Made by a program: the position numbers and the translations under genes. From Dongiaceae bacterium (GTDB lineage: Bacteria; Pseudomonadota; Alphaproteobacteria; SHNJ01): a stretch of 64,000 nucleotides of DNA. This document shows positions 20,844 to 41,675 of the stretch, in pieces. The stretch spans positions 2,285-66,284 of the forward strand of contig JBFXCK010000002.1 in NCBI GenBank assembly GCA_050182275.1, given 5' to 3'. How positions within the stretch are numbered: the first letter of the stretch is position 1; the number at the start of each line of letters is the position of its first letter. The notes below the pieces were generated by a model. That model saw only the letters and a program-made list of their open reading frames with translations. It was not told the origin of the DNA and ran no database searches.

Positions 20844-21221
20844 ATGGCCCATTACTACACCCAGTATTTACAGGAATATTTGCCCATTATCGTGTTTTTG
20901 GGCCTGGCGGCGGGTTTGTCGGTCATTATTTTGATTGCCTCTTATTTGCTGGCCGAACAAAAGCCGGATTCAGAAAAACTTTCGACCTATGAATGCGGTT
21001 TCGATGCGTTTAAGGATGCGCGCGGGAAATTCGATGTGCGGTTTTATTTGGTTTCGATTTTATTCATTATTTTTGATTTAGAAGTCGCCTTTCTTTTTCC
21101 CTGGGCCATTAGTTTAGGCAAAATCGGCTTCTTTGGTTTTTGGTCAATGGTAACCTTTTTGGGTGTGCTCACCATCGGTTTTATTTACGAATGGAAAAAG
21201 GGCGCGTTGGAGTGGGAATAA
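20844..21221 (+). CDS. nuoA: NADH-quinone oxidoreductase subunit A
   Basis: 125 aa with three TM segments and motifs YECGF and [12 protein letters not shown]. Confidence 0.92.
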
Positions 21222-21791
21222 ATGGGTAAGCAATTAATTGTCACGGCAAGCGGCAGCGGCCTAAGCATGGCCGACATCGCCCAGGATAATCTGGAAGCGG
21301 CCGCTTTGCGCCAAGAATATAGCGATAAGGGTTTTATCGTAACCCAGCTTGATAAATTGGTGCGCTGGGCGCAAACCGGATCGCTTTGGCCGATGACATT
21401 CGGTTTGGCTTGCTGCGCGGTTGAGATGATGCAAACCGCCGCCAGCCGCTATGATCTTGACCGTTTCGGCATGGTTTTCCGCCCCAGCCCCAGGCAGTCG
21501 GATGTGATGATTGTGGCGGGCACGCTGACCAACAAAATGGCGCCGGCCCTTCGCAAAGTGTATGACCAAATGGCTGAACCGCGCTGGGTGGTTTCGATGG
21601 GTTCCTGCGCCAATGGCGGCGGCTATTACCATTATTCCTATTCAGTGGTGCGCGGGTGCGACCGTGTGGTTCCGGTCGATATTTATGTGCCCGGTTGCCC
21701 GCCAACGGCTGAAGCTTTGCTTTATGGCTTAATGCAATTGCAGAAAAAAATTAAGGGCCGCAAAGTTATCCGCCGGCCGGAGGCCGCTTAG
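21222..21791 (+). CDS. nuoB: NADH-quinone oxidoreductase subunit B
   Basis: N2 cluster ligand context [20 protein letters not shown] and VPGCPP. Confidence 0.95.
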
Positions 21792-22433
21792 ATGGCGCTT
21801 GATCTAGCCAGCCTTGCCGCCCAGCTTGCCAATCATTTTGGCGCAAAAATGCAATCGCATGAGATTAAGCACGGCGAATTAACGCTGCTGGTGACGCGTG
21901 AATCGATTATCGAGGTTTTAACACATCTGCGCGATCAATGGTCGTTTACCATGCTGGCCGATTTATGCGGTGTTGATTATTTGAACCGGCCGGAACGTTT
22001 TGAGGTGGTTTATAATTTATTGTCGCTTTCTTTCAATGCGCGTATCCGCGTTAAAATTTCAACCGATGAGGCAACGCCGGTGCCAAGCGCTGCCGGCGTA
22101 TTCAGCGCCGCCGGCTGGTATGAACGTGAAGCCTGGGATTTGTATGGTATTACATTCGCCGGCAACCCTGATTTGCGCCGGATCTTGACCGATTATGGAT
22201 TTGAAGGCCATCCGTTGCGGAAAGACTTCCCCTTAACCGGCTATGTCGAAGTGCGCTATGACGAAGAGCAAAAGCGCGTGGTGTATGAACCGGTAAAATT
22301 GCCGCAAGATTTCCGCACTTTTGATTTTCTAAGCCCGTGGGAAGGGATGGATCAAATATTGCCCGGCGATGAAAAGGCAGGCCCTGCCCACCAACCCATC
22401 GGCACGCCGCAAGCAAAGAAGAGGAGTGCCTGA
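21792..22433 (+). CDS. nuoC: NADH-quinone oxidoreductase subunit C
   Basis: 213 aa with the 30-kDa subunit motif ERE(A)[30 protein letters not shown]. Confidence 0.93.
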
Positions 22434-22437
22434 TGAT

Positions 22438-22511
22438 CCTCATGGTTCGACAGGCTCACCATGAGCAGAGTCAAAATAAAAAGCTCATCCTGAGCTTGTC
22501 GAAGGATGAGC
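22438..22511. repeat. Intergenic hairpin repeat family 2, copy 2 (modules A then B), inside the nuo operon
   Basis: cctcatggttcgacaggctcaccatgagc and gctcatcctgagcttgtcgaaggatgagc occupy most of the 103-nt nuoC-nuoD gap. Confidence 0.75.
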
Positions 22512-22536
22512 TTAATAATACGAGTATTTTTAAATC

Positions 22537-23724
22537 ATGACACAAAACGCTGCCCTTAAAGACGAAAAATTTACGCTGAATTTTGGCCCGCAGCATCCGG
22601 CGGCGCACGGCGTGTTGCGCCTTGTCTTGGATATGGATGGCGAAGTGATCGAGCGCGCCGATCCGCATATTGGCTTGCTTCACCGCGGCACCGAAAAATT
22701 AATTGAATATAAAACCTATTTGCAGGCAGTGCCTTATTTCGACCGGCTGGATTATGTTGCGCCGATGAATCAGGAACATGCCTTTGCCTTGGCGGTTGAA
22801 AAGCTGATGGGCTTGGAAGTGCCCGAGCGCGGGCAATATATCCGCGTGCTTTATTGCGAAATCGGGCGGATTTTGAATCATTTATTGAATATCACCACTT
22901 TTGCGATCGACGTTGGTGCGATGACGCCCTTGCTCTGGGCTTTCGAAGAGCGCGAGGTGCTGATGGAATTTTACGAACGCGCCTCAGGCGCGCGGCTGCA
23001 CGCCAATTACTTCCGCCCCGGCGGCGTTGCTTTCGATATGCCGCCCGGCCTGGCCGAAGATATTTGGAAATTTACCGAACGCTTCCCCAAAACCATTGAC
23101 GATATCGAGGGGTTGCTGACCGAAAACCGCATTTTCCGCCAGCGCACCGTTGATATCGGCGTTATTTCGGCCAAGGATGCGCTGGATTGGGGGCTGTCTG
23201 GCCCGATGCTGCGCGGCAGCGGCGTGGCGTGGGATTTGCGTAAGTCCCAACCCTATGATGCCTATGCAAAAATGGATTTCGGCGTTCCGGTTGGCAAGAC
23301 GGGCGATTGTTTCGCGCGCTATTTGGTGCGGATCGAGGAAATGCGTGAATCATTAAAAATCATGCGTCAATGTTTGCAAAACATGCCGGGCGGCCCGGTG
23401 AAAAGCATTGACCGCAAAATTACGCCGCCGCCGCGCGAGGAAATGAAAATGTCGATGGAGGCTTTAATCCATCACTTTAAATTATTTACCGAAGGCTATC
23501 ATGTGCCGGAAGGCGAAACCTATACGGCGGTGGAGGCGCCTAAAGGCGAGTTCGGCGTTTATTTGGTTTCCGATGGCACGAACAAACCTTACCGCTGCAA
23601 AATCCGTGCGCCCGGATTTGCCTTTATGCAGGCGCTTGATTTCATGGCCAAGGGCCACATGCTGGCCGATGTGGTGGCGATTATCGGTTCCATGGATATT
23701 GTGTTCGGAGAAGTCGATCGATGA
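22537..23724 (+). CDS. nuoD: NADH-quinone oxidoreductase subunit D
   Basis: 395 aa with [16 protein letters not shown] and HRGTEKL, and the C-terminus DIVFGEVDR. Confidence 0.96.
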
Positions 23725-24278
23725 GCGAAGTTTTTACCTTCACCCCGGAAAATAAAAAACGCGCCGAGGAAATTGTCGCCAATTATCCCAAAGGCCGCCA
23801 GCAAAGCGCGATTTTGCCATTGCTTGATATGGCGCAGCGCCAAAATGATAATTGGCTGCCCAAGGCGGCCATGGATTATGTGGCGGAATATCTGGGTTTG
23901 GCCCCGATCCGGGTTTACGAGGTTGCGACCTTTTATTCGATGTTCAATTTAAAGCCGGTCGGCAAGCATTTTGTGCAAGTGTGCACCACTACGCCTTGCT
24001 GGCTGCGCGGTTCCTCTGAAATTATGGATGCTTGCCACCACAAAATCGGCGATGACAAAAATTTCAGCTTGGTGGAAGTCGAATGTTTGGGCGCTTGCGT
24101 GAATGCGCCGGTGGTGCAAATTAATGACGATTATTACGAAGATGTCACCCCGCAAATTATGGAACAAATGATTGCCGATTTAAAGGCCGGTAAAAAACTA
24201 AAACCCGGCTCGCAAACCGGCCGTCAAGGCTCGGCCCCCGAAGGCGGGCCAACCACATTGAAAAATAAGGTAGCCTAA
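23721..24278 (+). CDS. nuoE: NADH-quinone oxidoreductase subunit E
   Basis: 24-kDa subunit with 2Fe-2S Cys ligands ([11 protein letters not shown] ... [10 protein letters not shown]). It overlaps the nuoD stop by 4 nt. Confidence 0.94.
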
Positions 24279-25564
24279 TGCTGCAAGATCAAGACCGCAT
24301 TTTTACGAATCTTTATGGCCAGCATGATTGGCGCCTGGAAGGCGCCAAGGCGCGTGGCATTTGGTCGAATACCAAAGATTTCATTTTAAAGGGCCGTGAT
24401 TGGATTGTGGAAGAGGTAAAAAAATCGGGCTTACGCGGGCGCGGCGGCGCCGGTTTTCCAACCGGCACCAAATGGTCTTTCATGCCCAAGGGTTCGGTTG
24501 ATGGCCGTCCCAGCTATTTGGTGGTCAATGCCGATGAATCCGAGCCCGGCACCTGCAAAGACCGCGATATTTTACGCTTTGATCCGCACCGTTTGCTGGA
24601 GGGCATTGTACTGGCCGGTTGCGCGATGGGCGTTAGCGCCGCCTATATTTATATCCGCGGTGAATTTTATAACGAGGCCAGCAATTTAAGCGTCGCTATT
24701 AAAGAGGCGTATGCGGCTGGTTTGATCGGCAAAAATGCCTGCGGCTCGGGTTACGATATCGAAATTTATTTGCACCGGGGGGCAGGCGCCTATATTTGCG
24801 GTGAAGAAACGGCGCTTCTTGAAAGTTTAGAGGGTAAAAAGGGCCAGCCGCGCCTCAAGCCGCCTTTCCCCGCTGCTGTTGGTTTATATGGCTGCCCGAC
24901 TACCGTGAATAATGTTGAAACCATCGCCGTCACCGGTGAAATTTTGCGCCGGGGCGGGGAATGGTTCGCCAAAATCGGCCGCCCGAAAAATGAGGGCACC
25001 AAAATCTTTTGCATTTCAGGTCATGTGAACAAGCCCTGCAATGTGGAAGAAGAAATGGGCATTCCGCTCAAAGAATTGATCGAACGCCATGCTGGCGGCG
25101 TGCGCGGCGGGTGGGATAATTTATTGGCGATCATTCCGGGCGGATCTTCCGTGCCGTTATTGCCAAAATCAGTTTGCGACAATGTGCTGATGGATTTTGA
25201 TTCATTGCGCGCGGTGCAATCGGGCCTTGGCACGGCGGCGGTAATTGTCATGGATAAATCAACCGACATTGTGAAGGCCATCGCCCGTCTTTCCCGCTTT
25301 TATAAACATGAATCTTGCGGCCAATGCACTCCCTGCCGCGAAGGCACGGGCTGGCTGTGGCGCATGATGGAGCGTATGGCCATTGGCGATGCCAAGCCTG
25401 AGGAAATTGAAGTGTTATTAGACGTTACTAAACAAATCGAAGGCCACACTATTTGCGCGCTGGGCGATGCTGCCGCCTGGCCGGTGCAAGGTTTAATCCG
25501 CCATTTCCGCCCTGAGTTGGAGCGCCGGATTGAGGTTGCACGCAACAAACAAGCAGCCGCTTAA
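24278..25564 (+). CDS. nuoF: NADH-quinone oxidoreductase subunit F
   Basis: FMN/NADH site [13 protein letters not shown] and 4Fe-4S motif [12 protein letters not shown]. Confidence 0.96.
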
Positions 25565-25578
25565 AAAAGGAGCAGACG

Positions 25579-25995
25579 ATGAAAGACTCTATTTATATGA
25601 CACCTGAGGAAAGAGCTGTTGTAGTAACTAAGGCGAATAATTTTTCAACTTTTGTAGTAACTTCAAGGCTTAGGGATATTGCTGCCCCCTTCATGCCTTT
25701 TACTGGTTGGGGCACTATTCTTGGCTCTTGCTTCCTAGCGGTTGTTGCTTTGAACGCGGTAACTCTTATGGCTTTGGCTACGTGGATGGTTGCAGCGGCT
25801 GTAACTATGGGTTTAGGAATTTTGCAATGTTATTTGGGCCGTGATTGGCGGGCAACGAAAGAAGTTAGAGCCGATATTCTTATTTTGGCAGGCAGACATC
25901 TTCATCCACGCAATCAGGCAAGACCGGTTAATGTCGTTGCTTGTAACTCTGCTTCTTCGCAATCACCGCCGCGTGGGCCTGTGCGTGAACGGTAA
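25579..25995 (+). CDS. Small membrane protein of unknown function inserted between nuoF and nuoG
   Basis: 138-aa ORF with aaggag 7 nt upstream of the ATG and two predicted TM helices (WGTILGSCFLAVVALNAVTLMALATWMVAAAVTMGLGIL). Its codon usage is visibly more AT-rich than the flanking nuo genes. Confidence 0.55.
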   Translation: MKDSIYMTPEERAVVVTKANNFSTFVVTSRLRDIAAPFMPFTGWGTILGSCFLAVVALNAVTLMALATWMVAAAVTMGLGILQCYLGRDWRATKEVRADILILAGRHLHPRNQARPVNVVACNSASSQSPPRGPVRER

Positions 25996-26009
25996 TTAAG
26001 GATATTTAA

Positions 26010-28064
26010 ATGCCCAAAATTGTCATTAACGGAAAAGAAATCGAAGTTGCGGCCGGGCGCACGGTGTTTCAGGCTTGCCAGGATATAGGTGTTGAGGTTC
26101 CGCATTTCTGTTTTCATGAGCGGCTGGCAATCGCCGGCAATTGCCGCATGTGTTTGGTGGAGATGGAAAAGGCGCCAAAGCCGATTGCTTCCTGCGCCAT
26201 GCCGGTCGCCGATGGGATGGTGATTAAAACCGATACGCCGCTTGTGCACAAAGCGCGGCAAGGGGTAATGGAATTTTTGCTGCTCAACCATCCGCTTGAT
26301 TGTCCGATTTGCGATCAGGGCGGCGAATGCGATTTGCAAGATCAGGCCATGGCCTATGGCTATGACCGTGGCCGCACCAAGGAAATGCGCCGCGCCGTGC
26401 CCGATAAATATATGGGGCCGCTGGTTAAAACCGTAATGAACCGCTGCATTCACTGCACGCGCTGCATCCGCTTTATTGATGAGGTCGCGGGCGTGCCGGA
26501 ATTGGGCGCGGTGGGGCGCGGCGAGAATATGGAAGTCACCAATTATGTTGAAAAAGCACTCACTTCCGAACTTTCCGCCAATATTATCGATCTGTGCCCG
26601 GTTGGCGCGCTTACCTCAAAACCCTATGAATTCGCCGCGCGGCCTTGGGAATTGACCAATACGTTAAGTGTTGATGTGCATGATGCGGTCGGCAGCAATA
26701 TCCGCATCGATTCGCGTGGCCGTGAAGTCATGCGCATTCTGCCGCGTTTGAACGAGGCTATTAACGAAGAATGGCTGGCCGATAAATCGCGCTATGCCTG
26801 TGACGGTTTAAAGCGCCAGCGGCTTGACCGCTGCTATATCCGCGTTGAGGGCAAGCTGCAGCCGGCTGCTTGGGAAGAGGCGTTCGCCTTCATTGCCAAG
26901 CGCCTGAAAAAAGTGCCGGGTCAAAAAATCGCGGCTCTAGCTGGCGATTTGTGCGATATCGAATCGATGTTGCTGTTGAAAGAATTGATGCAATCGCTCG
27001 GCTCTAATAATTATGATTGCCGCCAAGATGGCGCGAAGTTAGATGCCAGCACACGCGCCGGATATTTATTCAACACCACCATCGCCGGCATCGAGCAGGC
27101 CGATGCGTGCCTGTTGATCGGCGCCAATCCACGTGTTGAGGCGCCCTTGGTGATGGCGCGCTTGCGCAAGCGTTTCTTGCAGAATGGCCTGAAAATCGGC
27201 TTGCTCGGCGCACCCGCCAATTTGACCGCGAAATATGAAGATTTGGGCGATAAACCCGAAACTTTAGTGGCTATTGCGCATGGCAAACATCCTTTCCATC
27301 AAATTTTAAAGGGCGCTAAGAAACCGATGCTTATCATTGGTATGGGCGCTTTAACGCGGAATGACGGCGCTTATTTGCTGCATTTGGCGCGCCATATCGC
27401 TGATTCTTGCAACTTGATTCAGCATGATTGGAACGGTTTTAACGTGCTGCATACCGCGGCCGCACGGGTAGGGGGCCTTGATGTTGGCTTCATTCCGCCC
27501 AAGGGCGGAAAAGATACAGCCGGAATTATGGCGGCTTGCGAATCGGGTGAGATCGAGGCGCTTTATTTATTAGGCGCCGATGAAATCGATACCGAAAAAT
27601 TGGGCAAGGCCTTTGTGATTTATCAGGGCCATCACGGCGATAAGGGCGCGCACCGGGCCGATGTTATTTTGCCGGGCGCCGCATACACTGAAAAAGACGG
27701 GCTTTATGTAAATATGGAAGGCCGCGCGCAATATGGCTTTGCTGCCGTATTGCCGCCCGGCGAGGCTAAGGAAGATTGGAAGATTTTGCGCGCCTTATCC
27801 GAGCGTTTGGGTCATACGCTGCCCTATAATACCCAAAGTCAAATCCGTGAAAAATTGGCCAGCATCAATGCCTGCTTCACGCAAATTGAAGATGTGGTTG
27901 AAGCCCCCTGGGGCCCGTTCGGCCAAGTGGGCACGCTGGATAACCGGCCTTTCGACAAATTCATTGAAAATTACTACATGACCGATGCCATCAGCCGCGC
28001 CTCGCCCACCATGGCGAAATGCACGGCGGAATTTTTATATGGCACCACCGCGGAGGCGGCGTAA
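26010..28064 (+). CDS. nuoG: NADH-quinone oxidoreductase subunit G
   Basis: 684 aa with an N-terminal 2Fe-2S region (CRMCLVE), 4Fe-4S motifs ([17 protein letters not shown]) and a molybdopterin-like domain. Confidence 0.96.
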
Positions 28065-28065
28065 T

Positions 28066-29106
28066 ATGAACGAATTTTTCACTGTCTATGGCATTCCGGC
28101 GCTCATCATGGCGGGCAAGGTGCTGGCGCTGGTGGTGCCTTTGCTGGTGGCGGTTGCGTTCTTAACGCTGGCCGAGCGCAAAGTGATTGGCGCGATTCAA
28201 TTGCGCAAAGGGCCGAATGTGGTGGGGCCGTTTGGCTTATTGCAGCCTTTCGCCGATGCTCTAAAATTATTGATGAAAGAAACCATTATTCCGGCGGCGG
28301 CGAATAAGCTTTTGTTTATTCTGGCGCCGATTGTGACTTTCAGCCTAAGCCTGGTCGCCTGGGCGGTGATTCCGGTAAGCGTTGGCGTGGTTTTGGCCGA
28401 TATTAATGTCGGAATTTTATATTTATTTGCAATTTCCTCGCTCAGCGTATACGGCATCATCATCGCCGGCTGGGCCAGCAATTCCAAATACCCGTTCTTG
28501 GGCGCGCTGCGCTCGGCGGCGCAGATGGTTTCTTACGAGGTTTCGATCGGCTTTGTGATTGTGACGGTGTTGCTATGCGCGGGCAGCATGAATTTAACCG
28601 CAATTGTTGAATCACAGCGCACAGGATGGATTCCGGGCGTGCCGATTTTGGGCGGCTGGTATTTATTGCCGCTGTTGCCGATGTTCGTGATTTTTGTAGT
28701 GTCGGCCTTGGCTGAAACCAACCGCTCGCCCTTTGATTTGGTGGAGGGGGAATCGGAATTGGTAGCGGGCTATTTTGCCGAATATTCCGGAATGCCTTTT
28801 GCCTTGTTCTATTTAGGCGAATATGCCGCGATGATTTTAATGAGCGCCATGGCCTCGATCCTGTTCCTGGGCGGCTGGGTGCCCCCGGTTGAGGCTTTGC
28901 CCTTTACCCTAATTCCAGGCCCGGTATGGTTCGCCTTGAAAATCGCCTTTGTGCTGTTTATCTTTTTATGGGTAAGGGCCACTTTTCCGCGCTACCGCTA
29001 TGACCAATTAATGCGGCTGGGGTGGAAGGTATTTTTGCCGCTTTCCCTGTTTTGGGTTGTTTTAACGGCGGGCGCCTTGCTTGCCAGCGGCCAATTGCCG
29101 CAGTAA
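28066..29106 (+). CDS. nuoH: NADH-quinone oxidoreductase subunit H
   Basis: Polytopic ND1 homologue ([34 protein letters not shown]). The start is set to the ATG at 28066, 1 nt after the nuoG stop. The ORF-track extension from 27985 overlaps nuoG. Confidence 0.93.
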
Positions 29107-29115
29107 AGAGGAAGT

Positions 29116-29601
29116 ATGCCATTAAACCGCACCGCGCGTAGTTTTTTATTGGGCGAATTGCTGGGAGGCCTGTGGCTTACCTTCAAATATATTTTCAAGC
29201 CCAAATACACGCTGAATTACCCGTTTGAAAAGGGCAAGATCAGCGCGCGCTTTCGTGGCGAGCATGCTTTGCGCCGCTATGCCAATGGCGAGGAACGCTG
29301 CATTGCCTGCAAATTGTGCGAAGCGGTGTGTCCCGCCCAGGCTATCACCATCGAATCCGAACCGCGCGAAGATGGCAGTAGGCGCACCACGCGCTATGAT
29401 ATCGATATGACTAAATGCATCTATTGCGGCCTATGCCAGGAAAGCTGCCCGGTCGATGCGATTGTACAGGGCCCAAATTTTGAATTCTCGACCGAAACGC
29501 GGGAAGAATTATTTTATAATAAAGAAAAATTGCTGGCCAATGGCGATAGGTGGGAGCCTGAAATCGCCGCCAACTTAAAAGCCGAAGCGCCGTTCAGGTA
29601 A
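29116..29601 (+). CDS. nuoI: NADH-quinone oxidoreductase subunit I
   Basis: Two ferredoxin-type motifs: [12 protein letters not shown] and [12 protein letters not shown]. Confidence 0.95.
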
Positions 29602-29603
29602 TT

Positions 29604-30815
29604 TTACAAAAACTGTTTAAGCTTGTTCCATACGCTGGTGCTGCCTAGGTAAAAGGTAGCTTCTGCCGTCATGCCGTCCAATAACGGATAATTTTGATCG
29701 CGGGCGCGGATTTCTTTTTCAACGCTGCGGATAATGAAATGTTTGGCCGGTTTTTCACCAAAGCGGGGAACGGCGGCATCTAGTTCCCGCTCCACGGTGC
29801 CGGTAACAGTGGCGAAAGCGGCAGTCGGGCGCGGTTGCAGGCGCAAATGGGCGCGGGTGCCGGGGGTAATTTGAGTTAAAGCCGGGTCAACAAAGGCTTC
29901 AAAGAACACCGTATCGGGTTCAGGGGATAGGGTGGCCACCACCGTCCCGGCCGCCACTTCTTGATTCGGCGCAACGGAAAAACGCACAATTCCATCAGCA
30001 GGGGCGACAACAATTAAAGAGGCCTGTTCGATTTTAATATCGGCTAAACGGGTGGCGGCTTCTTTTAGGTTTTTGGCAATAACCCGGTTTTCAGCGGCCA
30101 AAGAAGCGGCGCGGTCGGCGCTTAAACGTTCGATCCCGCGCTCGGTTTCCTGGCGGCTTTTAATAAGAGCGGCTTGCTGCTGCACCCAGGATTGGCGTTC
30201 GGCGACCAGAGCGGCCTGGCGACGGCTTTGGGTAGCCGCCCATTCTTCCGGCGAGTCGGGATCGCCCGGAATATTTACGATCACCGAGGGGCGTTCCGGC
30301 TGGTCTTTCAAGCGTTTATCGACATTGGCAATGGAAGAGAGGATTTTATCCTCGGCTTCTTGCAGGGGCGCCAGACGGTCTTGCAATTCGCTGAGGCGGC
30401 GGGTGAATTCCTCTTGCCGCGCTTGATACAACTCATATTGTTCTTGCTTGAATTGTTCGGGCAAGTCGGTCGGCAATACCAATTCCTGGCCGGTCATTTC
30501 GGCTTCAAGGCGGGCTTGCTGAGCTTCGATCAGCAGGATTTGATCTTGCAGATCTTTGGCTTCCTGCTCCAAATCGGGACGCTGCAGACGCAATAAAGGA
30601 GCGCCTTCTTTTACAAGAGTTTCCATGCTCACCAGCGGCGCTATGAGGCCGGGCAAAGGAGCTTTAATTTCTTGCGGCGGCAGAGTTGCAATCACGCGCG
30701 CCGGCATGACTTTCACTTCCTCCACTTGCAGCCAAAAAACCCCCGAACCAATCATGGCCGCCAGCAAAAGCACGACAATAATGTTCAAAGGAAGGAAAGG
30801 GGAAAAACGGGGCAT
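29604..30815 (-). CDS. HlyD-family membrane fusion protein
   Basis: N-terminal TM segment (LNIIVVLLLAAMIGSGVFWL), a lipoyl-like hairpin (KAPLPGLIAPLVSMETLVKEGAPLLRL), a long coiled coil and a C-terminal beta-barrel. The start is set to the MPRFSPF ATG at 30815, 8 nt after the upstream stop. Confidence 0.75.
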   Translation of the reverse strand: MPRFSPFLPLNIIVVLLLAAMIGSGVFWLQVEEVKVMPARVIATLPPQEIKAPLPGLIAPLVSMETLVKEGAPLLRLQRPDLEQEAKDLQDQILLIEAQQARLEAEMTGQELVLPTDLPEQFKQEQYELYQARQEEFTRRLSELQDRLAPLQEAEDKILSSIANVDKRLKDQPERPSVIVNIPGDPDSPEEWAATQSRRQAALVAERQSWVQQQAALIKSRQETERGIERLSADRAASLAAENRVIAKNLKEAATRLADIKIEQASLIVVAPADGIVRFSVAPNQEVAAGTVVATLSPEPDTVFFEAFVDPALTQITPGTRAHLRLQPRPTAAFATVTGTVERELDAAVPRFGEKPAKHFIIRSVEKEIRARDQNYPLLDGMTAEATFYLGSTSVWNKLKQFL

Positions 30816-30823
30816 GGGCTTGC

Positions 30824-32785
30824 TCAATTGAAATGCCCGCGCACGGCGGCGGCAATATCGCCTGGCGCGCCCTGCTGTTCGATGCGCCCTTGGTGCAGCC
30901 AATAAGCATCCTCGCACAAGGCTAAAAGCGAAAGGCGGGAGGTTAAAATAATCAAGGTTGGTACTTTGCCGGATAATTTTTGCAAAAGCGCCTCTTCTTC
31001 GTCTTGCGGCAAGGCGGGCAGGCCTTCATCCAAAATCAAGACGCTGGGTTTTTGGCACAGGGCGCGGGCAAGGCGCAAAAGCTGCCATAGACGGCTGTTT
31101 AAATGCAATCCGCCGGGCCCAAGCTTGGTATAAATTTCCTGTGGCAATCTTTTTACCCAGCTTTCTAAATTAGCCAGGCGCAAAGCCGCCATGACTTCAG
31201 CATGGCTGTGAATGGAAGCAGGGCTTAAATAATCGAATATAGCGCCGTTGAAATTTTCCTCTTCCCCTGCCGTAAGAAGCTGAATTTGCCGGCGCCACTG
31301 AGGGGCCAATTCTAGGAAGGAATAGCCATCCAGGCGCAACTGGCCGGTGCTGGGTTCATAAAAACCCGCCAAAACTTTCGCTAAGCAAGTCTTGCCAGAA
31401 CCGGCTTGGCCATAAATACCGGCGACGCCCGGCTTAAAGCTTAAATTAATCCGCTGTAAAATTTGCGCTTCGGCGTGAAAGGCGAAGCTGGCATTATCCA
31501 GCGTTAGAAAGCCCTGTACATTTTCCGCGGGCTGAATATTGGCCTGGGGTTTTTTGTATTGAAACAAATGGGCGCTTACTTGGCGAAGCTTGATTTCTTC
31601 CCACCAAACGCGGCGCAGCTTAGTGGTCCCGGCAAAGGGGGAAAGAATAATGTAAAACAACAATCCTGATCCCAGCATTTGGCCCAAGCTCAAGCTTTCC
31701 GCCATAAACATCCGCCCCGCCAGCAACACGCCAATCGCCACCGCCATTACCACCGTAAAGCTTTGCAAAAACACGCTAAGACGAATGGCAAGCGGGGTTG
31801 TATTGGCGGTTTCATTTAAAGGCTGGTTGTCATCAAAAGCCTGGCGGCGCCATAAGCGCTGCAATAGTGTTTTGCTATCAAAGCCGCTGGCGCCGGGATT
31901 TTCCCGCAAATAATTTTCTACCATCCAGGTAGGCAGCAAGATTAAAGGCAATGCCGCCACCGCCACCACCGCCAGCGGCAGGGAAAGGGAGGCCAGGATC
32001 ACCAAGCCTAAAGCGCTTATTAGTATGTCCGCCGCTAAAATACTAAGAAGGGGGCGGTTTAAAATGGCGGCTTTTTTCATTTGCGCGGCCACAAAATCGC
32101 TAAAGCCGTTTTCTAACTTTGGCCAGGGAATATAGTGCAAACCTTCGCTTAAAAGCTGTTGATACGCATTTCGCGCTTGGCGCTTGGACCAATTAGCAGT
32201 GGCAAGACGCAATGACGATAATAAAATATAGAATACTCCGCCCATTAAAGTCGCAATGCCCAAGCTCATCCAAGTTTGCCCGGCGCGCAAAGCAAGCACG
32301 TGATCGGTCAATACAATGGCGCCGCCTGCCAGGCTTAAACGCAAGCCGCCCAATAATAAGGACAAGCCGAACATTTCAGCGGCGCCTGCTTCCGGCAGGG
32401 CGGGGGTTTTATCGGGAGCCAGACGGGTATTAGCTGCCGTGATGGGGCGCAACGCTAAAATAAGATCGGTTGGCGCCAGCGAGGTTTCTTGGCCCGGTAA
32501 AATCAATTCGGCTTGGCCATTGCGCCAGGCGATAAAAGGGGTATTAGCGAAATCGGGCACCCATTCGGCTACCGGCTTAACAATCGTGGCATAGCCCCAG
32601 GCCTTGGCCATTTGGGTTAAATCGTCATTGGCGGTATGGGGCAGGCGCACCGGCTCCTTGCGGCCATAATAGCGGTCAAGGGCGGCCAGGCATTCGGCGA
32701 AACTGCCGGCATCGAGCGTGGGCGGCAGATTCTGATTTTCCGCCGCTGCCGCTTCTTGCACCATTAAAGTAAAAGATTGGGTCAT
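30824..32785 (-). CDS. ABC half-transporter (type I secretion-like) with an N-terminal C39-like domain and a degenerate NBD
   Basis: 653 aa. The N-terminal ~150 aa resemble a peptidase C39-like domain, followed by a TMD and an NBD. Walker A is GQAGSGKT and Walker B is VLILDE. The signature reads LNSRL and the H-loop reads TSRLS. Confidence 0.75.
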   Translation of the reverse strand: MTQSFTLMVQEAAAAENQNLPPTLDAGSFAECLAALDRYYGRKEPVRLPHTANDDLTQMAKAWGYATIVKPVAEWVPDFANTPFIAWRNGQAELILPGQETSLAPTDLILALRPITAANTRLAPDKTPALPEAGAAEMFGLSLLLGGLRLSLAGGAIVLTDHVLALRAGQTWMSLGIATLMGGVFYILLSSLRLATANWSKRQARNAYQQLLSEGLHYIPWPKLENGFSDFVAAQMKKAAILNRPLLSILAADILISALGLVILASLSLPLAVVAVAALPLILLPTWMVENYLRENPGASGFDSKTLLQRLWRRQAFDDNQPLNETANTTPLAIRLSVFLQSFTVVMAVAIGVLLAGRMFMAESLSLGQMLGSGLLFYIILSPFAGTTKLRRVWWEEIKLRQVSAHLFQYKKPQANIQPAENVQGFLTLDNASFAFHAEAQILQRINLSFKPGVAGIYGQAGSGKTCLAKVLAGFYEPSTGQLRLDGYSFLELAPQWRRQIQLLTAGEEENFNGAIFDYLSPASIHSHAEVMAALRLANLESWVKRLPQEIYTKLGPGGLHLNSRLWQLLRLARALCQKPSVLILDEGLPALPQDEEEALLQKLSGKVPTLIILTSRLSLLALCEDAYWLHQGRIEQQGAPGDIAAAVRGHFN

Positions 32786-33873
32786 CCGTATTTATTGCCT
32801 GCAGCTGCCAGCTTGCGGGCATATTTGGCCTTGGCTTTATTGAGAATATCCAATAATTCCACGCCGCTTTCCCCGCCAAGCCCTTTAATGTCTTCCCGGA
32901 TCACCGCTTGAATCCCGTCAATATGGGCGCGGATAAGTTCAAGAAGTTTTTCATCCAATTCCAGATGTTTGCTTTCGGTGTAATCGCATAAGGATTTGCC
33001 GAAAGTGGTGATTAAATTATAGCCGAACGTATCGCCCTGGCCGCGCAGTTCGTGCGCGATATTATAGATGGTTTGGTAGTATTTCCAAGGATTTTTAGGC
33101 TGTTTGGCCAGTTCGGTATATTGCCCCATAAGCTTTTCGACATTGCCTTGCACCCAAGTGGTGTAATCGTCTTTGCGCGAGCGCAATTGTTTTTCGGCGG
33201 CGCGAAGGAGCTTGGGATCGATTTTGCCCTCTTCTTCCACGCTTTTTGGCGCCAATTTCACCTTTAGTTTGTTGGGCAGATGGAAATACCAAATCTTGGC
33301 CTTGGTATTAAGCGTATCGGGATTTTTTTGAACAGTGATAATTTCACAATCTTCTTCTGAAACCAGGCGGCGCTCCTCGCCGGGATGGGGCAAAGCTTGC
33401 TTGCGCCGGTCGGGGCCGAAATAGGTGCCGCTATGCAGGAAATGATTGGGCGCCTCGATCAAGGCTTCTAGGCGTTGAGTGACGGTGGAAATGGAATAGG
33501 GTTTGGTCAAAAAGTCATTGATACCCAAATCACGGGCTTCTTCAACGGTATGGCGGCTGACATCGCCGCTGACCGCGATAAAGGGTATATAGCGGTCGGG
33601 CGATTCTTCGGATCTGCGTAACCAACGCAATAACATCGCACCGCTAACGGGGAGCATCAGCCAGTCGGCCATAATTAAATCAATTCCGCAATCGCCGGGG
33701 GAAGGGGCGGTAATCGCCGCGGTTTTCAGCTGCTGAATCGCTTCGCTGCCGTCATGAGCAATCAAAAGCTTGCCCACCTTTAAGGCGCGTAAAACAGACA
33801 CTAGCGTGTTGCGTGAAAACTCATCATCATCGACGACTAGCACGGAAAGTTTTTCTAGATTATAATTTGCCAT
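32782..33873 (-). CDS. Response regulator: receiver domain, Arg-rich linker and C-terminal HPt-like domain
   Basis: Canonical REC motifs (VLVVDDDE, LIMADWLM, AVSG, TKP). The C-terminal IAHELRGQGDTFGY matches the HPt H-x-x-[KR]-G motif. Its stop overlaps the ABC gene start by 4 nt. Confidence 0.75.
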   Translation of the reverse strand: MANYNLEKLSVLVVDDDEFSRNTLVSVLRALKVGKLLIAHDGSEAIQQLKTAAITAPSPGDCGIDLIMADWLMLPVSGAMLLRWLRRSEESPDRYIPFIAVSGDVSRHTVEEARDLGINDFLTKPYSISTVTQRLEALIEAPNHFLHSGTYFGPDRRKQALPHPGEERRLVSEEDCEIITVQKNPDTLNTKAKIWYFHLPNKLKVKLAPKSVEEEGKIDPKLLRAAEKQLRSRKDDYTTWVQGNVEKLMGQYTELAKQPKNPWKYYQTIYNIAHELRGQGDTFGYNLITTFGKSLCDYTESKHLELDEKLLELIRAHIDGIQAVIREDIKGLGGESGVELLDILNKAKAKYARKLAAAGNKYG

Positions 33874-33950
33874 TGTTTACAAAGCGGTTGGAAAATTCAC
33901 ATCCGGAGGATTTTAACCACTTTGCCTTATAAGATAAAGGGTTAACCCGC

Positions 33951-37486: not shown

Positions 37487-38791
37487 ATGCAAGGTGAGGT
37501 CGACCAAATCGACCCTATACGTTATTTTGGCCAAGTGACCGGGGTTTTGGGCATGTTGGTTGAATTGACGGGGGTAACCAACCGGTTATCGGTCGGTGAC
37601 CGCTGCGTTGTTCTGGGCCGGAACGACAAACGCGTTCCTTGCGAAGTGGTAGGCTTCCGCGACAATAAAGCCTTAGCCATGCCCTTTGCCGATTTAGCCG
37701 GGATCGGGATGGGATCGACGGTTGAAATCGCCAATGCCGCCGGTCAAATTTATCCAACCTTTGGATGGCTGGGGCGCATCATCAACGCGCTAGGCGAACC
37801 CATCGATCAATTAGGGCCGCTGCCTTTGGGCGGCCAGGCTTGGGCAGTTAAAGGAACGCCGCCGCCGGCGCATGCGCGCCAGCGCGTAACGGGCAAGATT
37901 GATTTGGGCGTGCGCTCGATCAACACTTTCACCACTTGCTGCCGTGGGCAGCGTTTGGGGATTTTCTCCGGTTCCGGTGTGGGTAAATCGACCGTCATTT
38001 CAATGATGGCGAAATATACCAATGCCGATGTCACCGTCATCGGGCTGGTCGGCGAACGGGGCCGTGAGGTGCAAGAATTCGTGCAAGATGATTTAGGGCC
38101 GGAAGGCTTAAAGCGTGCCGTGCTGGTGGTCGCCACTTCCGATGAATCGCCTTTGATGCGCCGCCAGGCGGCCTATATGACCTTGGCGGTTGCGGAATAT
38201 TTCCGCGATCAAGGCAAGAATGTTTTATGCTTGATGGATTCGGTCACCCGTTTTGCTATGGCGCAACGGGAAATCGGCCTATCGGTTGGCGAGCCGCCAA
38301 CCAGCAAAGGCTATACCCCAACCGTCTTCACCGAACTGCCGAAATTGCTGGAACGCGCGGGGCCGGGGTTGAAAAATAGCGGCTCGATCACCGCCTTATT
38401 CAGCGTGCTGGTCGAGGGGGATGACACCAACGAACCCATCTCCGACGCCGTGCGCGGGATTTTAGACGGCCACATCGTTCTCGACCGCGCTATTGCCGAA
38501 CGCGGCCGGTATCCGGCGATCAATATTTTGCGCTCGCTTTCCCGGAGCTTGCCCGATTGCAATTCGCCGGATGAAAATAAATTGGTCAGCCGCGCCCGGC
38601 AATTGCTGGCTTCTTATGAAGATATGGCGGAAATGATCAGGCTTGGCGCTTACCGCCCCGGCAGCGATCCGAAAACCGATGAGGCGATTAAATATTATCC
38701 GGCGCTGGAAGATTTCCTGCGCCAGGGCGAGCATGAACCCAGCCGCTTTGCCGACGGCTATGCGCAATTGGCGAAGATTTTGCAGTCCTAA
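37487..38791 (+). CDS. fliI: Flagellum-specific ATPase FliI
   Basis: 434 aa, F1-beta-like, with Walker A GSGVGKST and Walker [11 protein letters not shown]. Confidence 0.93.
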
Positions 38792-38794
38792 GCC

Positions 38795-39214
38795 ATGAAA
38801 AAAATCGGCACGCTCATCCGCTTGCATAAGCTAGAGCTTGATGAAAAGCGCCGCCGCCTGCGGGGCTTGGAAGAAGAGCTGGCGGCTTTAAAGGCGGCGC
38901 GCAAAAATTTAGATATTGAATTAAAAAATGAGCAAAAAACCGCCGGCAGCGATGTATCTTATTCCGTTACCTATGCCGGCTACGCCAAACGCTTCATGCA
39001 GCGCCGGGAGGAATTAGAGGCGGCATTGGAAGTAAAAGCGGTGGAAGTCGATGTCGCCGCCGAATTTGTGCGGGAGGCGTTTCAAGAGCTGAAAAAATAC
39101 GAAATCACCGCCGGGCGTCAAAAGGCCAAGGCGAAAAAAGAGCGCGAGACGATAGAGCAGAACGAGCTGGATGAAGCGGCGGGCGATAAGCACCAGCGCA
39201 AGAAAAAGGGCTAA
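38795..39214 (+). CDS. fliJ: Flagellar export protein FliJ (coiled-coil)
   Basis: 139-aa, highly charged coiled-coil protein immediately after fliI. The call rests on position and composition. Confidence 0.6.
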   Translation: MKKIGTLIRLHKLELDEKRRRLRGLEEELAALKAARKNLDIELKNEQKTAGSDVSYSVTYAGYAKRFMQRREELEAALEVKAVEVDVAAEFVREAFQELKKYEITAGRQKAKAKKERETIEQNELDEAAGDKHQRKKKG

Positions 39215-40884
39215 ACCGCGACGATGTCGTGGCTGCCGGCGGCGATTTCATTTAACGGTTGCACGGCAAAGGGCGATTCCACTTGAAACAGCAATTGGCC
39301 TTTTAATCCGGCGGCTTCACTGTAGTCTTGAAAAATTTTTGTAATATCTTCCCGCATATTGGGCGCCAGGGCTTGGGCCGTGCGCACCATTAAATCAAAG
39401 CGCTGTTTGGCGACATAGCCATCCAATTGAAAGGGCCCAAGCCGCGTGAAATCGACCTCAACAATAAAACGCTGGTGGTCTTTTCCTTCCTGTTCTTCAT
39501 GGGCTTTCCGGTGCCAGAAAAAGCGTATGGGATGAAATTGCGCACCGTCAAACATGGGAATGAAAGCGGCCTGCCATTCGCCGCTTTTGGTCGCGGCGTA
39601 ACGCGCTTGCTCTTGCCAATCGGCGGTTAGTTTTTTGGCGCCTTCCTCGCCGATCGTTTCCTGCAAAAGGCGGAAAATTTCCGGTGTCAGCCATAAATTC
39701 ATTTCGCTTTTTTGCAAGCCTTGCAGGAAAGCGAAAACCGTATTTGCCAGATGAGCCGGGTTTTGGCCGTTCAAATGCTGCGCCAGTTGTGCGGCGATCG
39801 GCGGATTTTTTTGCTGGAAAATCGCTAAGGCATCGCTTAGGGCGGGCCAAGCGCGCGCTAGGGCGGGCAAAGCGGCGCTTTGCTGCCAGGTAATAGGGGC
39901 CGTGGAGAGGGGCATAGGCGCTGGGGTGCTTACTTCCAGCCAAACTTGCGTGCCAGGAGGCACGTTAAATGATTTGGAAAAATGCGCAACTCCTTGCGGT
40001 AATTGTAACAGGGTTTGCCCTTGGCTGGTGGTGCCGATCACGGTTGCGGGCACCATTTTACCCGGCCCCGGCAATTTGGCATTGCCTTGCGGCGCGCCAT
40101 CGGGCGTTAGGATCATCAGCACCTTGGCTTGGACGGGCGGCGGCAGGGCCGAATAAGTTTTATTTTCCGCAGGCGCATAAGTGGGAATAGAACTCTTGGA
40201 CATAAGGGCAGGATTTTTTTGTGGTTGGCTTTCAGCCTCCGGCAAAAACAAGGCCGCGGCGGGCGAAGCGGGAACCGGCGGATTGGCAGGAGGGGTGTTC
40301 GCTGCTTTAGCGCCAGGCGGCGGCGTTTTAGCCGGGTCATTTTTCGCCGCTTCTTCTTTGATGGGCAAAGCCGGGCGCGCCAGAACGGCTAACAGCGCAT
40401 TAGTGGCGGCCTCAAGCGCCAGCGCCTGCGGATTTTGCCCCGCGGTATAGACATGCGCGGCAGCGCCTCCGGTTTCAATAAAATTCAACATTCCGGTAAA
40501 ACCCGGCTCTAAAGGAATCGCCGGCGCAGGCGTAGCAGCGGGAAGCGGGGCGTTCGCCACCGGCGCGCCCGGCTTAGGCAAAGCTTGAATCAAAGCTTGC
40601 AAAATATTCGGCTGGCCCGGCTGTTGTTTCAGTTCGATAATAACGGCGGCGCCGGGCGGCAAAGGCAAAGGGGTTTGCACCACGATTTTGCCTTGCGGGG
40701 TTTGGATTTCTAAGGCGCCTGCCTGGGGGCCTTGATGCAGGCGGCCAATGACTTCACCGCTGATGGAAACGGGTTTGACGCTTTGCGCCAGCAGGGCAGG
40801 CGAGGCTTCCAAGACACGGCTGGGAGCCACGGCCGGCAGGGCGGAAGAAGGAGAGGGGCCAGTAGGACCGCTGATGCGGCTCAC
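39211..40884 (-). CDS. Pro/Ala-rich protein with a FliK-C-like (Flg_hook-like) C-terminal segment; last gene of the flhA-flhF-flhG unit
   Basis: 557 aa with long P/A-rich low-complexity stretches. The C-terminal FIVEVDFTRLGPFQLDGYVAKQRFDLMVRTAQ...GLKGQLLFQV follows the L.P..LG.v.v pattern of hook-length-control C-domains. Its start overlaps the flhG stop by 4 nt. Confidence 0.5.
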   Translation of the reverse strand: MSRISGPTGPSPSSALPAVAPSRVLEASPALLAQSVKPVSISGEVIGRLHQGPQAGALEIQTPQGKIVVQTPLPLPPGAAVIIELKQQPGQPNILQALIQALPKPGAPVANAPLPAATPAPAIPLEPGFTGMLNFIETGGAAAHVYTAGQNPQALALEAATNALLAVLARPALPIKEEAAKNDPAKTPPPGAKAANTPPANPPVPASPAAALFLPEAESQPQKNPALMSKSSIPTYAPAENKTYSALPPPVQAKVLMILTPDGAPQGNAKLPGPGKMVPATVIGTTSQGQTLLQLPQGVAHFSKSFNVPPGTQVWLEVSTPAPMPLSTAPITWQQSAALPALARAWPALSDALAIFQQKNPPIAAQLAQHLNGQNPAHLANTVFAFLQGLQKSEMNLWLTPEIFRLLQETIGEEGAKKLTADWQEQARYAATKSGEWQAAFIPMFDGAQFHPIRFFWHRKAHEEQEGKDHQRFIVEVDFTRLGPFQLDGYVAKQRFDLMVRTAQALAPNMREDITKIFQDYSEAAGLKGQLLFQVESPFAVQPLNEIAAGSHDIVAV

Positions 40885-41675
40885 TGCTCACCAATCAACA
40901 GGCGGGCGATGCTCGAGACATCGACCGCGGCTTCGGTATTTGGATGCCGGGTTAATAGCGGCGTTTGATGGCGGATCGATTCGCTCACTTTGCGGTCGCG
41001 GCGGATAATGCCAGCCAGTTTCGGCTCGAATTTCAAGAAGCCCTTGCATGCTTTCAACAGAGTGGCGTAAGTTTTTTCGCCATCTAATTTTGAATGCGCC
41101 ATGTTCACAACCAAGCGCATATCGGTGTTTGGCTTTTCACTCAGAGAAACTTTGATGAAAGTATAAGCATCGGTAAGCGATGTTGGTTCATCGGTGGAGA
41201 CGATTAAAAAAGCATCGGCATCAACCGCCAGCGCGCGCACCGAACGTTCCACACCTGCGCCCAAATCGATAATGACATGGTCGTATTTTGCCGCCAGCTC
41301 CATCAATTTGACGCGGATTTCCGACAGACGCGAAGCGGGCAGGGAAGCCAGTTGGCCTGAACCCGAACGCCCGGCGATCACATCGAAGCCGCCGGTTTGA
41401 TAATGCGTGATAACTTTTTCCAGCGGCAAATTACCAGTGACCGCCGTGCTTAAATCTTTTTCCGGCATTAAGCCCAATTGAATATCGGCATTAGCCAAGC
41501 CCAAATCGGCATCGAATAACAATACACGTTTGCCAAGGCGGGTGAGAGCGTGGCTTAAGGTGATAGAGAACCAAGTTTTGCCAACCCCCCCTTTACCGGA
41601 TGCAACCGCTATTACACGCGGTACTTTTAAGGCAGTGGATGCCTGGGTTTCTGGGGTGGTTACTGGGGTGGTCAT
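40881..41675 (-). CDS. flhG: MinD/ParA-type flagellar number regulator FlhG (FleN/MotR)
   Basis: Deviant Walker A ASGKGGVGKT, a 264-aa MinD-like protein located after flhF. Confidence 0.8.
   Translation of the reverse strand: MTTPVTTPETQASTALKVPRVIAVASGKGGVGKTWFSITLSHALTRLGKRVLLFDADLGLANADIQLGLMPEKDLSTAVTGNLPLEKVITHYQTGGFDVIAGRSGSGQLASLPASRLSEIRVKLMELAAKYDHVIIDLGAGVERSVRALAVDADAFLIVSTDEPTSLTDAYTFIKVSLSEKPNTDMRLVVNMAHSKLDGEKTYATLLKACKGFLKFEPKLAGIIRRDRKVSESIRHQTPLLTRHPNTEAAVDVSSIARLLIGEQ

Follow-up and report, generated by a model that had tools for sequence, protein, structure and literature searches.

A probable lineage-specific juxtaposition of a Cle-like signalling gene and a divergent type I-like ABC/HlyD pair in a Dongiaceae bacterium

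Introduction

The type I secretion systems HlyB-HlyD of Escherichia coli and LssB-LssD of Legionella comprise a half-size ATP-binding cassette (ABC) exporter that carries an additional region at its N-terminus and, next in order, a transmembrane-anchored adaptor of the HlyD family, and in the case of hlyBD/tolC the TolC-type channel is encoded apart from hlyBD. ABC exporters with degenerate nucleotide-binding sites are also known; the heterodimeric TM287/288, CFTR and TAP1/2 carry non-consensus signature, Q-loop or H-loop residues with ATP binding retained, and one consensus site is kept. In Pseudomonas, LapD/LapG place type I secreted adhesins under the control of cyclic di-GMP (c-di-GMP), acting on the adhesin at the outer membrane and not on the ABC protein. 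In the present work, we analysed a stretch of 64,000 nucleotides from a Dongiaceae bacterium (assembly GCA_050182275.1, contig JBFXCK010000002.1, positions 2,285 to 66,284; hereafter the window), in which the gene of a signalling protein is followed by the genes of an ABC half-transporter and a HlyD-type membrane-fusion protein (MFP), all three on the minus strand at window positions 29604-33873.

Gene 1 of this trio (regulator, P0001; 32782..33873) encodes 363 amino acids and gene 2 (ABC half-transporter, P0002; 30824..32785) 653 amino acids. Gene 3 (MFP, P0242; 29604..30815) encodes 403 amino acids from the ATG at 30815, within a long open reading frame (ORF) spanning 29604..30917. For the signalling gene, the closest described proteins are the Cle proteins. 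The sections of the Cle paper on which we draw (Nesper 2017, PMC5677366) give [YF]XGP[DE][RK]R as their c-di-GMP-binding motif, describe a contribution of an arginine in receiver helix alpha4 (R113 of CleD), and state that their activation needs no phosphorylation. An earlier note on this DNA had read gene 1 as a phosphorelay protein hard-wired to a transporter pair. Our analysis favours, with a probability of about 0.55, a different arrangement, in which a conserved signalling gene of the Cle-like kind is followed by a non-canonical type I-like pair specific to the lineage, co-expression rather than a mechanistic tie connecting the two.

Results

The ABC and MFP proteins were compared by tblastn with 78 loci of regulator relatives; in 62 of them, the sequence extends 3.2 kb or more downstream of the regulator. 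In none of the 78 was an ABC or MFP gene found adjoining the regulator. ABC-like matches at E≤1e-3 were obtained in four of these loci, at distances of 1.6-4 kb from the regulator; in three of the four, the match lies on the opposite strand. A distant MFP-like match was present at the far end of one locus. No neighbour family of any kind was common to more than 11 of the 61 scorable loci; the other 17 had been dropped when the regulator ORF was not recovered by the crude ORF caller.

The two closest relatives of gene 1, with 62% identity to it, come from a sister genus (loci L013 and L014). Both loci show the order hexapeptide transferase gene, rpsI, rplM, cutA and regulator, followed by the convergent nuoI, nuoH and nuoG. 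In L014, the stops of the regulator and nuoI are separated by 68 nt. In L013, a partly masked (X) ORF of 140 amino acids fills 575 nt at the position of the ABC and MFP genes; it was considered as a remnant of either gene and rejected, as no similarity was found (E 39 and E 10). The slot of the pair is filled in the present genome only and is empty in the nearest relatives, and a gain here is more parsimonious than a loss in the sister genus. In the sequence of events that we propose, gene 1 would be an old, normally stand-alone signalling gene placed between cutA and nuoI, as it is in the sister genus as well, and a 3.2-kb segment with the ABC and MFP genes would have been added between gene 1 and nuoI in the present lineage. 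The trio would then be a species- or genus-specific juxtaposition of recent neighbours rather than a conserved machine, a reading to which we give slightly better than even odds. The claim that a phosphotransfer protein is hard-wired to a transporter as a unit did not survive this comparison, in view of the 78 loci without an ABC or MFP neighbour and the sister-genus slot without the pair. The earlier note had itself stated that the trio would be refuted as a unit if it were not conserved elsewhere, and no recurrence was found.

Searches with the pair itself reached far beyond these loci. Against 5.8 billion proteins, the best non-self match of gene 2 had 26% identity over 35% of the query, and HMMER, run without filters on 1.84 billion representatives, returned generic matches to the nucleotide-binding domain (NBD) only, at identities of 33% or less. 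Gene 3 gave a single database match (E 3.4e-5). None of five genomes of the same family gave a match at E≤1e-20, and no relative of gene 2 was found in a metagenome scan. By these searches, the ABC/MFP pair is without an orthologue anywhere searched. A foreign origin by composition was considered and rejected, since codon-usage log-likelihood, the GC content at third codon positions (GC3) and overall GC content were all within the normal range of the genome; among its 918 long ORFs, the codon-usage log-likelihood stood at percentile 29 for the ABC gene and at percentile 50 for the MFP gene. No mark of a mobile element was found flanking the segment, the direct and inverted repeats around 29400-33000 being short and at chance level.

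An alternative reading is that the trio forms a true functional module, in which the regulator, upon phosphorylation or c-di-GMP binding, would bind the ABC protein and gate an exporter whose ATPase cycle has degenerated. The translational coupling of the three genes speaks for it, as does the finding that regulator and ABC gene adjoin each other in a second assembly of this species too. Moreover, the NBD is without catalytic motifs yet seemingly under purifying selection (see below), so another input could control the ABC protein, and the regulator retains both its phospho-acceptor set and its arginine-rich region. However, the regulator family is found in hundreds of genomes without such a partner (0/78 loci), the same genomic slot in the sister genus lacks the pair, and the sequence of gene 1 shows no departure from the invariants of its family. 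The literature, with the terms searched, offered no precedent and no paper that connects a REC-HPt protein (receiver plus histidine phosphotransfer domain) with a type I secretion operon. On balance, a module of this kind appears rather unlikely.

Domain searches agreed with the assignment of genes 2 and 3 by the earlier note as an ABC half-transporter and a HlyD-type adaptor and with its reading of a receiver and an HPt-like H-x-x-R-G domain in gene 1, although the HPt and type I models matched below threshold. In gene 2, Pfam ABC_tran was detected with 54.4 bits. Its nearest NCBIfam model was TIGR03375 (LssB type), which scored 139.5 bits against a cut-off of 693.1 and covered residues 306-648 only, and TIGR01846 (HlyB type) scored 108.1 bits against a cut-off of 725.55. 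The protein appears to be laid out as a weakly C39-like N-terminal region (residues 1-135), about six transmembrane helices (135-407) and an NBD (about 420-653). Pfam ABC_membrane was not detected at E≤0.1; the transmembrane domain nevertheless shows 21-25% identity when aligned with type I ABC proteins, and the AlphaFold2 model placed helices at 135-407 with a predicted local distance difference test (pLDDT) score of about 55-83, the mean for the protein being 60 from an alignment of seven rows. For the N-terminal region there was no match to Pfam C39. When compared with six N-terminal domains it gave an hhalign probability of 55% (E 1.2e-4), and its hidden Markov model score of 5.9 bits ranked second among the real sequence and 500 shuffles. 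Residues 1-133 were modelled with pLDDT mostly below 50, and the alignment shows no Cys or His at the catalytic C39 positions. Judged from its domains, gene 2 is a very divergent LssB/HlyB-type ABC half-transporter.

In residue alignments of the NBD (30824..31528, minus strand) with ABCB1 and with six type I secretion ABC proteins, the Walker A motif (GQAGSGKT) and Walker B with the catalytic glutamate (LILDE) were found intact. On the other hand, the Q-loop glutamine is replaced by glycine, the signature LSGGQ by LNSRL, the D-loop SALD by PALP and the H-loop histidine by serine; in the six type I comparators, the H-loop histidine is kept in all and LSGGQ in five. The intracellular loops (ICL) are shortened too, with about 22 residues missing from ICL2 and about five from ICL1. 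Since Walker A, Walker B and the catalytic glutamate are intact, the NBD probably binds ATP, and since the Q-loop glutamine, LSGGQ, the D-loop and the H-loop histidine are all lost, canonical ATP hydrolysis is unlikely. A gene 2 homodimer would have two degenerate sites, in contrast to the one consensus site kept in TM287/288, CFTR and TAP1/2. As the Walker-side loops and the signature are both altered, a consensus ATP site would be expected neither in the homodimer nor in a heterodimer formed with a canonical partner. We also observed another divergent LssB-type ABC protein (P0212, 719 amino acids) with the non-consensus signature LPAGL and the H-loop histidine kept; it may point to a larger set of type I ABC proteins whose signatures are altered.

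Gene 3 matched Pfam HlyD_3 with 29 bits, above the cut-off of 22.2, and TIGR01843 with 87.9 bits, below the cut-off of 208.65, over residues 43-428 of the long ORF. Its N-terminal transmembrane helix follows after only about eight cytoplasmic residues. By these matches, it is a divergent HlyD-family membrane-fusion protein. The pair thus shares with HlyB-HlyD and LssB-LssD the order of a half-size exporter with an extra N-terminal region and an anchored adaptor, TIGR03375 and TIGR01843 being the best NCBIfam models for genes 2 and 3; the sole full-length resemblance of gene 2 is a 25% identity to the LssB-type P0212. It differs from them in scores far below the cut-offs, in the motif losses, in the shortened ICL1 and ICL2 and in an adaptor almost without a cytoplasmic N-terminus. 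The trio also lacks a cognate substrate gene, and the pair has no orthologue in the databases searched.

No OEP/TolC, RTX or small-peptide gene adjoins the trio, as neighbouring genes and gap sizes bear out, so the earlier note was right about their local absence. Eight ORFs of the OEP/TolC family (15 OEP-domain matches) are present, all away from the trio, and a canonical type I locus lies on contig C10 (50000-60010; L111:1-10010) with two RTX-repeat proteins (at least 991 and 1040 amino acids), an ABC protein of 727 amino acids with C39, ABC_membrane and ABC_tran domains, and a HlyD protein of 451 amino acids. Because both kinds of gene exist elsewhere and the RTX proteins have a transporter of their own, the lack of TolC and substrate genes at the trio is unremarkable. 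A recent duplication of the C10 system as the source of the pair was rejected; gene 2 is 21% identical to the C10 ABC protein, no closer than to foreign ABC proteins, and the C10 HlyD gene was not found with the MFP query at E≤0.01. With LapD/LapG the trio would share the functional tie between a c-di-GMP signalling protein and a type I secretion system; LapD-, LapG- and LapA-like genes were not found in the trio.

Strain differences, all of which come from a single study, bear on the question of whether the pair is still in use. The ORF of gene 2 is intact in three database sequences, and one full-length variant differs at five of the 653 residues. The contig of this variant (run X3, 3486 nt, window 30235-33720) has 50 differing positions, that is, about 1.4%. 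If these were evenly spread, about 28 of the 50 would fall in the ABC gene, and only five differences there change the protein, with four positions listed. In the MFP gene, five of the seven listed strain differences are synonymous. With modest confidence, these data suggest that the pair is under purifying selection and favour a kept function over decay, because the ORFs are intact, the codon usage is native and the strain differences appear to be mostly silent.

The same evidence bears on a further explanation, in which the pair would be a decaying relic of type I secretion, non-functional and merely carried behind the regulator gene. Such decay would account for the loss of four of six NBD motifs, the shortened intracellular loops, the undetected ABC_membrane domain and the scores far under the curated cut-offs (139.5 vs 693 bits and 87.9 vs 208.65 bits), and it would fit with the lack of any orthologue in the searches and with the complete canonical type I system elsewhere in the genome. 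However, both ORFs are intact over 653 and 403 codons, the ABC gene is uninterrupted in all three database sequences, a strain with about 1.4% DNA divergence showing only the five changes noted above, and most of the MFP differences listed are synonymous. Codon usage is normal, and dead DNA should be purged from a small (1.8 Mb), tightly packed genome. We thus consider a relic unlikely, and continue with the reading of a retained pair behind a conserved signalling gene.

Gene 1 carries a receiver domain at residues 11-135 (33469..33843, minus strand; Pfam Response_reg, 54.8 bits). In an alignment of 17 family members, the phospho-acceptor set D16, D70, S102 and K124 is invariant, together with R114, Y151-F-G-P-D-R-R157, R169, L276-R-G-Q-G...F-G-Y285 and H317, and the sequence of gene 1 fits all of these. 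The AlphaFold2 model (pLDDT 81.5; predicted template-modelling score 0.77) shows a receiver fold, a linker of low confidence (159-168) and, at 220-361, a domain built of helices. Its top Foldseek matches were CheY structures with TM-scores to the target of 0.87-0.92, only the receiver domain being matched, and a profile search of the PDB gave CheY3 as the best hit (7.6e-20).

Directly behind the receiver lies an arginine-rich region (ARR) at residues 151-169 (33367..33423, minus strand), which fits the Cle motif. Its first repeat, Y151-F-G-P-D-R-R157, is exact and is found in 113 of 120 relatives of gene 1; the second is a half repeat, G165-E-E-R-R169. R114, which falls in model helix 107-116, is a candidate counterpart of R113 of CleD. 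A six-frame scan of the whole genome detected four occurrences of the Cle motif, all directly after a receiver domain, in three proteins, namely gene 1, C1:267623-268240 and C10:20124-20762. The second of these (L113:7675-8244) is followed by a separate ORF of 275 amino acids (L113:8259-9086) similar to the HPt-like half of gene 1, as in a split fusion; the third (L112:6149-6766) has a perfect tandem Cle motif and lies directly upstream of kdpABC.

Gene 1 resembles the Cle proteins in its CheY-like receiver, in the ARR that follows directly and fits [YF]XGP[DE][RK]R, and possibly in the conserved arginine of helix alpha4. Its family is alphaproteobacterial, and in the present genome flagellar genes lie nearby. 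Domain searches of the genome (estimated completeness 100%) found no CheA dimerisation domain and no signalling domain of methyl-accepting chemotaxis proteins (MCP), but three GGDEF proteins; they also detected 16 HisKA kinases, all encoded away from the trio. Differences from the Cle proteins are the merely partial second repeat (G-E-E-R-R) and the invariant phospho-acceptor aspartate with its partners, where CleD has a glutamate (E70) (PMC5677366). A further difference is the long C-terminus of gene 1, whose roughly 190 residues form an HPt-like domain; the sections of PMC5677366 used for this comparison make no mention of HPt.

This HPt-like helical domain spans residues about 220-361 (32791..33216, minus strand), with the motif H274-E-L-R-G-Q-G, helices in the AlphaFold2 model and a weak match to Pfam Hpt (PF01627) of 16 bits, below the gathering cut-off of 24.6. 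Hpt matches at E≤0.1 were found for 10 of the 17 aligned relatives, the best at 3.4e-5. As in HPt domains, an H-x-L-[KR]-G-x-G-like motif sits on a helix of a helical bundle. Unlike in HPt domains, the score is sub-threshold, and the residue at the position of the histidine varies; in 120 relatives it is His in 85 and Leu in 26, with the motif absent from nine, gene 1 itself having His274. Since 26 of these 120 relatives have Leu in place of the His, with LRGQG..FGY around it invariant, the conserved role of the family cannot be phosphotransfer alone. The view of gene 1 as a phosphorelay protein hence holds as far as the receiver and the HPt-like domain are concerned, but a Cle-like CheY with an ARR describes it better, and the histidine is not conserved in the family. 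On this comparison, gene 1 is a CheY-like receiver with a Cle-type ARR and an HPt-like domain, not a plain REC-HPt relay protein, and it is a candidate binder of c-di-GMP and a candidate integrator of c-di-GMP and phosphorylation.

The family itself is large. The database search returned 304 proteins related to gene 1 at E≤0.001, the best 120 of which are listed, and at least 573 loci were confirmed in species-representative genomes; named relatives among the matches listed come from Oceanibaculum, Marivibrio, Aestuariispira, Magnetospirillum and Magnetospira. Taken by its members and their surroundings, the gene 1 family is old, conserved, large, mostly stand-alone and alphaproteobacterial. 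No paper on a fusion of a Cle ARR with HPt was found in the literature search.

Two other ways of tying the regulator to the pair were weighed against these properties. In one, the pair would be a transporter-like sensor that informs the regulator, as in flux-sensing ABC systems, and would thus be input and not output. A degenerate NBD and the co-orientation of the pair with a signalling gene are what such a sensor might show. However, no histidine kinase is encoded in or beside the trio, the 16 HisKA genes lying elsewhere, the pair has the exporter-type architecture of HlyB/HlyD, and the regulator family works elsewhere without such a partner, all of which makes a sensor most improbable. In the other, the ABC protein would be a pseudo-ATPase, and control of an envelope-spanning HlyD/TolC conduit would have passed to the Cle-like protein, whose c-di-GMP binding or phosphorylation would open or assemble the exporter in place of ATP hydrolysis. 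If true, a type I-like secretion device gated by a second messenger would have arisen recently, through insertion of the pair behind a conserved signalling gene; we regard this as a highly doubtful, speculative possibility. A complex prediction of the regulator with the N-terminal region and NBD of the ABC protein returned a score of 0.00, which is no answer and counts neither for nor against binding.

The gene packing of the trio was as the earlier note had described it. The three long ORFs lie on the minus strand at the positions first read, and the protein collection records the products of 653 and 403 amino acids, letter for letter identical. The regulator stop and the ABC start share an ATGA overlap (32782..32785, minus strand; junction sequence ggATGAcc), the stop TGA occupying 32784-32782 and the start ATG 32785-32783. 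Between the ABC stop TGA (30826-30824) and the MFP ATG (30815-30813), the junction sequence shows a spacer of 8 nt (30816..30823, minus strand). Overlaps of 4 nt are frequent between same-strand genes of the window, for example at 23721-23724, 40881-40884 and 41672-41675, and that of the trio is thus ordinary operon packing and nothing special. From the nuoI stop across the trio to cutA, the successive gaps measure 2, 8, -4 and 77 nt, which leaves no room for a hidden substrate gene. The host genome as a whole is compact.

The 77-nt divergent region between the regulator and cutA (33874..33950) is the sole non-coding space around the trio and presumably holds its promoter. A promoter scan of this region returned consensus-level matches only. 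The counts of the promoter and terminator scan were near the shuffle expectation; for sigma70-like matches, 10 were found against 5.7 +/- 2.5 expected, that is, barely above it. The convergent stops of nuoI and the MFP gene lie 2 nt apart (29599-29606), and the scan found no terminator-like structure between them.

Beyond the end of the MFP gene, nuoA-I occupy the plus strand at 20844-29601, convergent with the trio. Beyond gene 1 follow cutA, rplM, rpsI, a hexapeptide transferase gene and the gene of an OmpR-type regulator. Flagellar genes start at 37487, 3.6 kb from gene 1, and comprise fliI, fliJ, flhA, flhF and motA, with genes for a MinD-like ATPase and a sigma-54 activator. The nuo cluster ends at nuoI facing a convergent gene, with the same break in the sister genus (L013, L014), and nuoJ-N must lie elsewhere since the cluster stops there. 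Two further ORFs of the window matched no Pfam family. One of 138 amino acids lies between nuoF and nuoG (25579-25995, plus strand; threshold E≤0.001), and another of 557 amino acids (39211-40884, minus strand) has a 4-nt overlap with the MinD/FlhG-like ATPase gene in the flagellar cluster.

Discussion

Taken in this way, the locus would work as follows. Since the ABC start overlaps the regulator stop, the pair would most likely be transcribed by read-through from the regulator promoter. Selection would have kept it, as the strain differences suggest. By analogy with hlyBD/tolC, it would probably dock to one of the eight unlinked TolC-like channels. Because ATP binding is probable but canonical hydrolysis unlikely, the pair may act as a slow or non-canonical exporter of unlinked cargo, or as an envelope-spanning scaffold. 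Co-expression would be the simplest link between the regulator and the pair, rather than direct switching of the pump by phosphorylation or c-di-GMP.

Several points weigh against this reading. There is no outgroup that polarises the event, and the sister genus may instead have lost the pair, though a remnant was not found; the comparison moreover covers one genome of the present genus only. The regulator and the ABC gene are adjacent in the second assembly too, on one contig of 5881 bp, and the ATGA overlap and 8-nt gap fit a real operon, so a functional link may have been acquired after the insertion. Gene 1 itself contains a sigma70-like match (33088-33061, 10 of 12 positions) from which the ABC and MFP genes could be transcribed independently of the regulator promoter. 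The loss of ATPase function in gene 2 is deduced from motifs only, and purifying selection on the ABC gene assumes an even spread of the 50 differences, four positions of which are listed.

A conserved phosphorelay-transporter machine was not upheld, which spares follow-up work on a family that does not exist. The pair, with four of six ATPase motifs lost and apparently selected, would be a natural test case of an ABC exporter scaffold without canonical hydrolysis. The gene 1 family, of Rhodospirillales type and uncharacterised, fuses a putative Cle c-di-GMP-binding peptide to an HPt-like domain, here in a flagellated genome without CheA or chemoreceptors. This suggests that the family may be a junction of c-di-GMP and phosphorelay signalling that controls motility and is undescribed in the literature searched.

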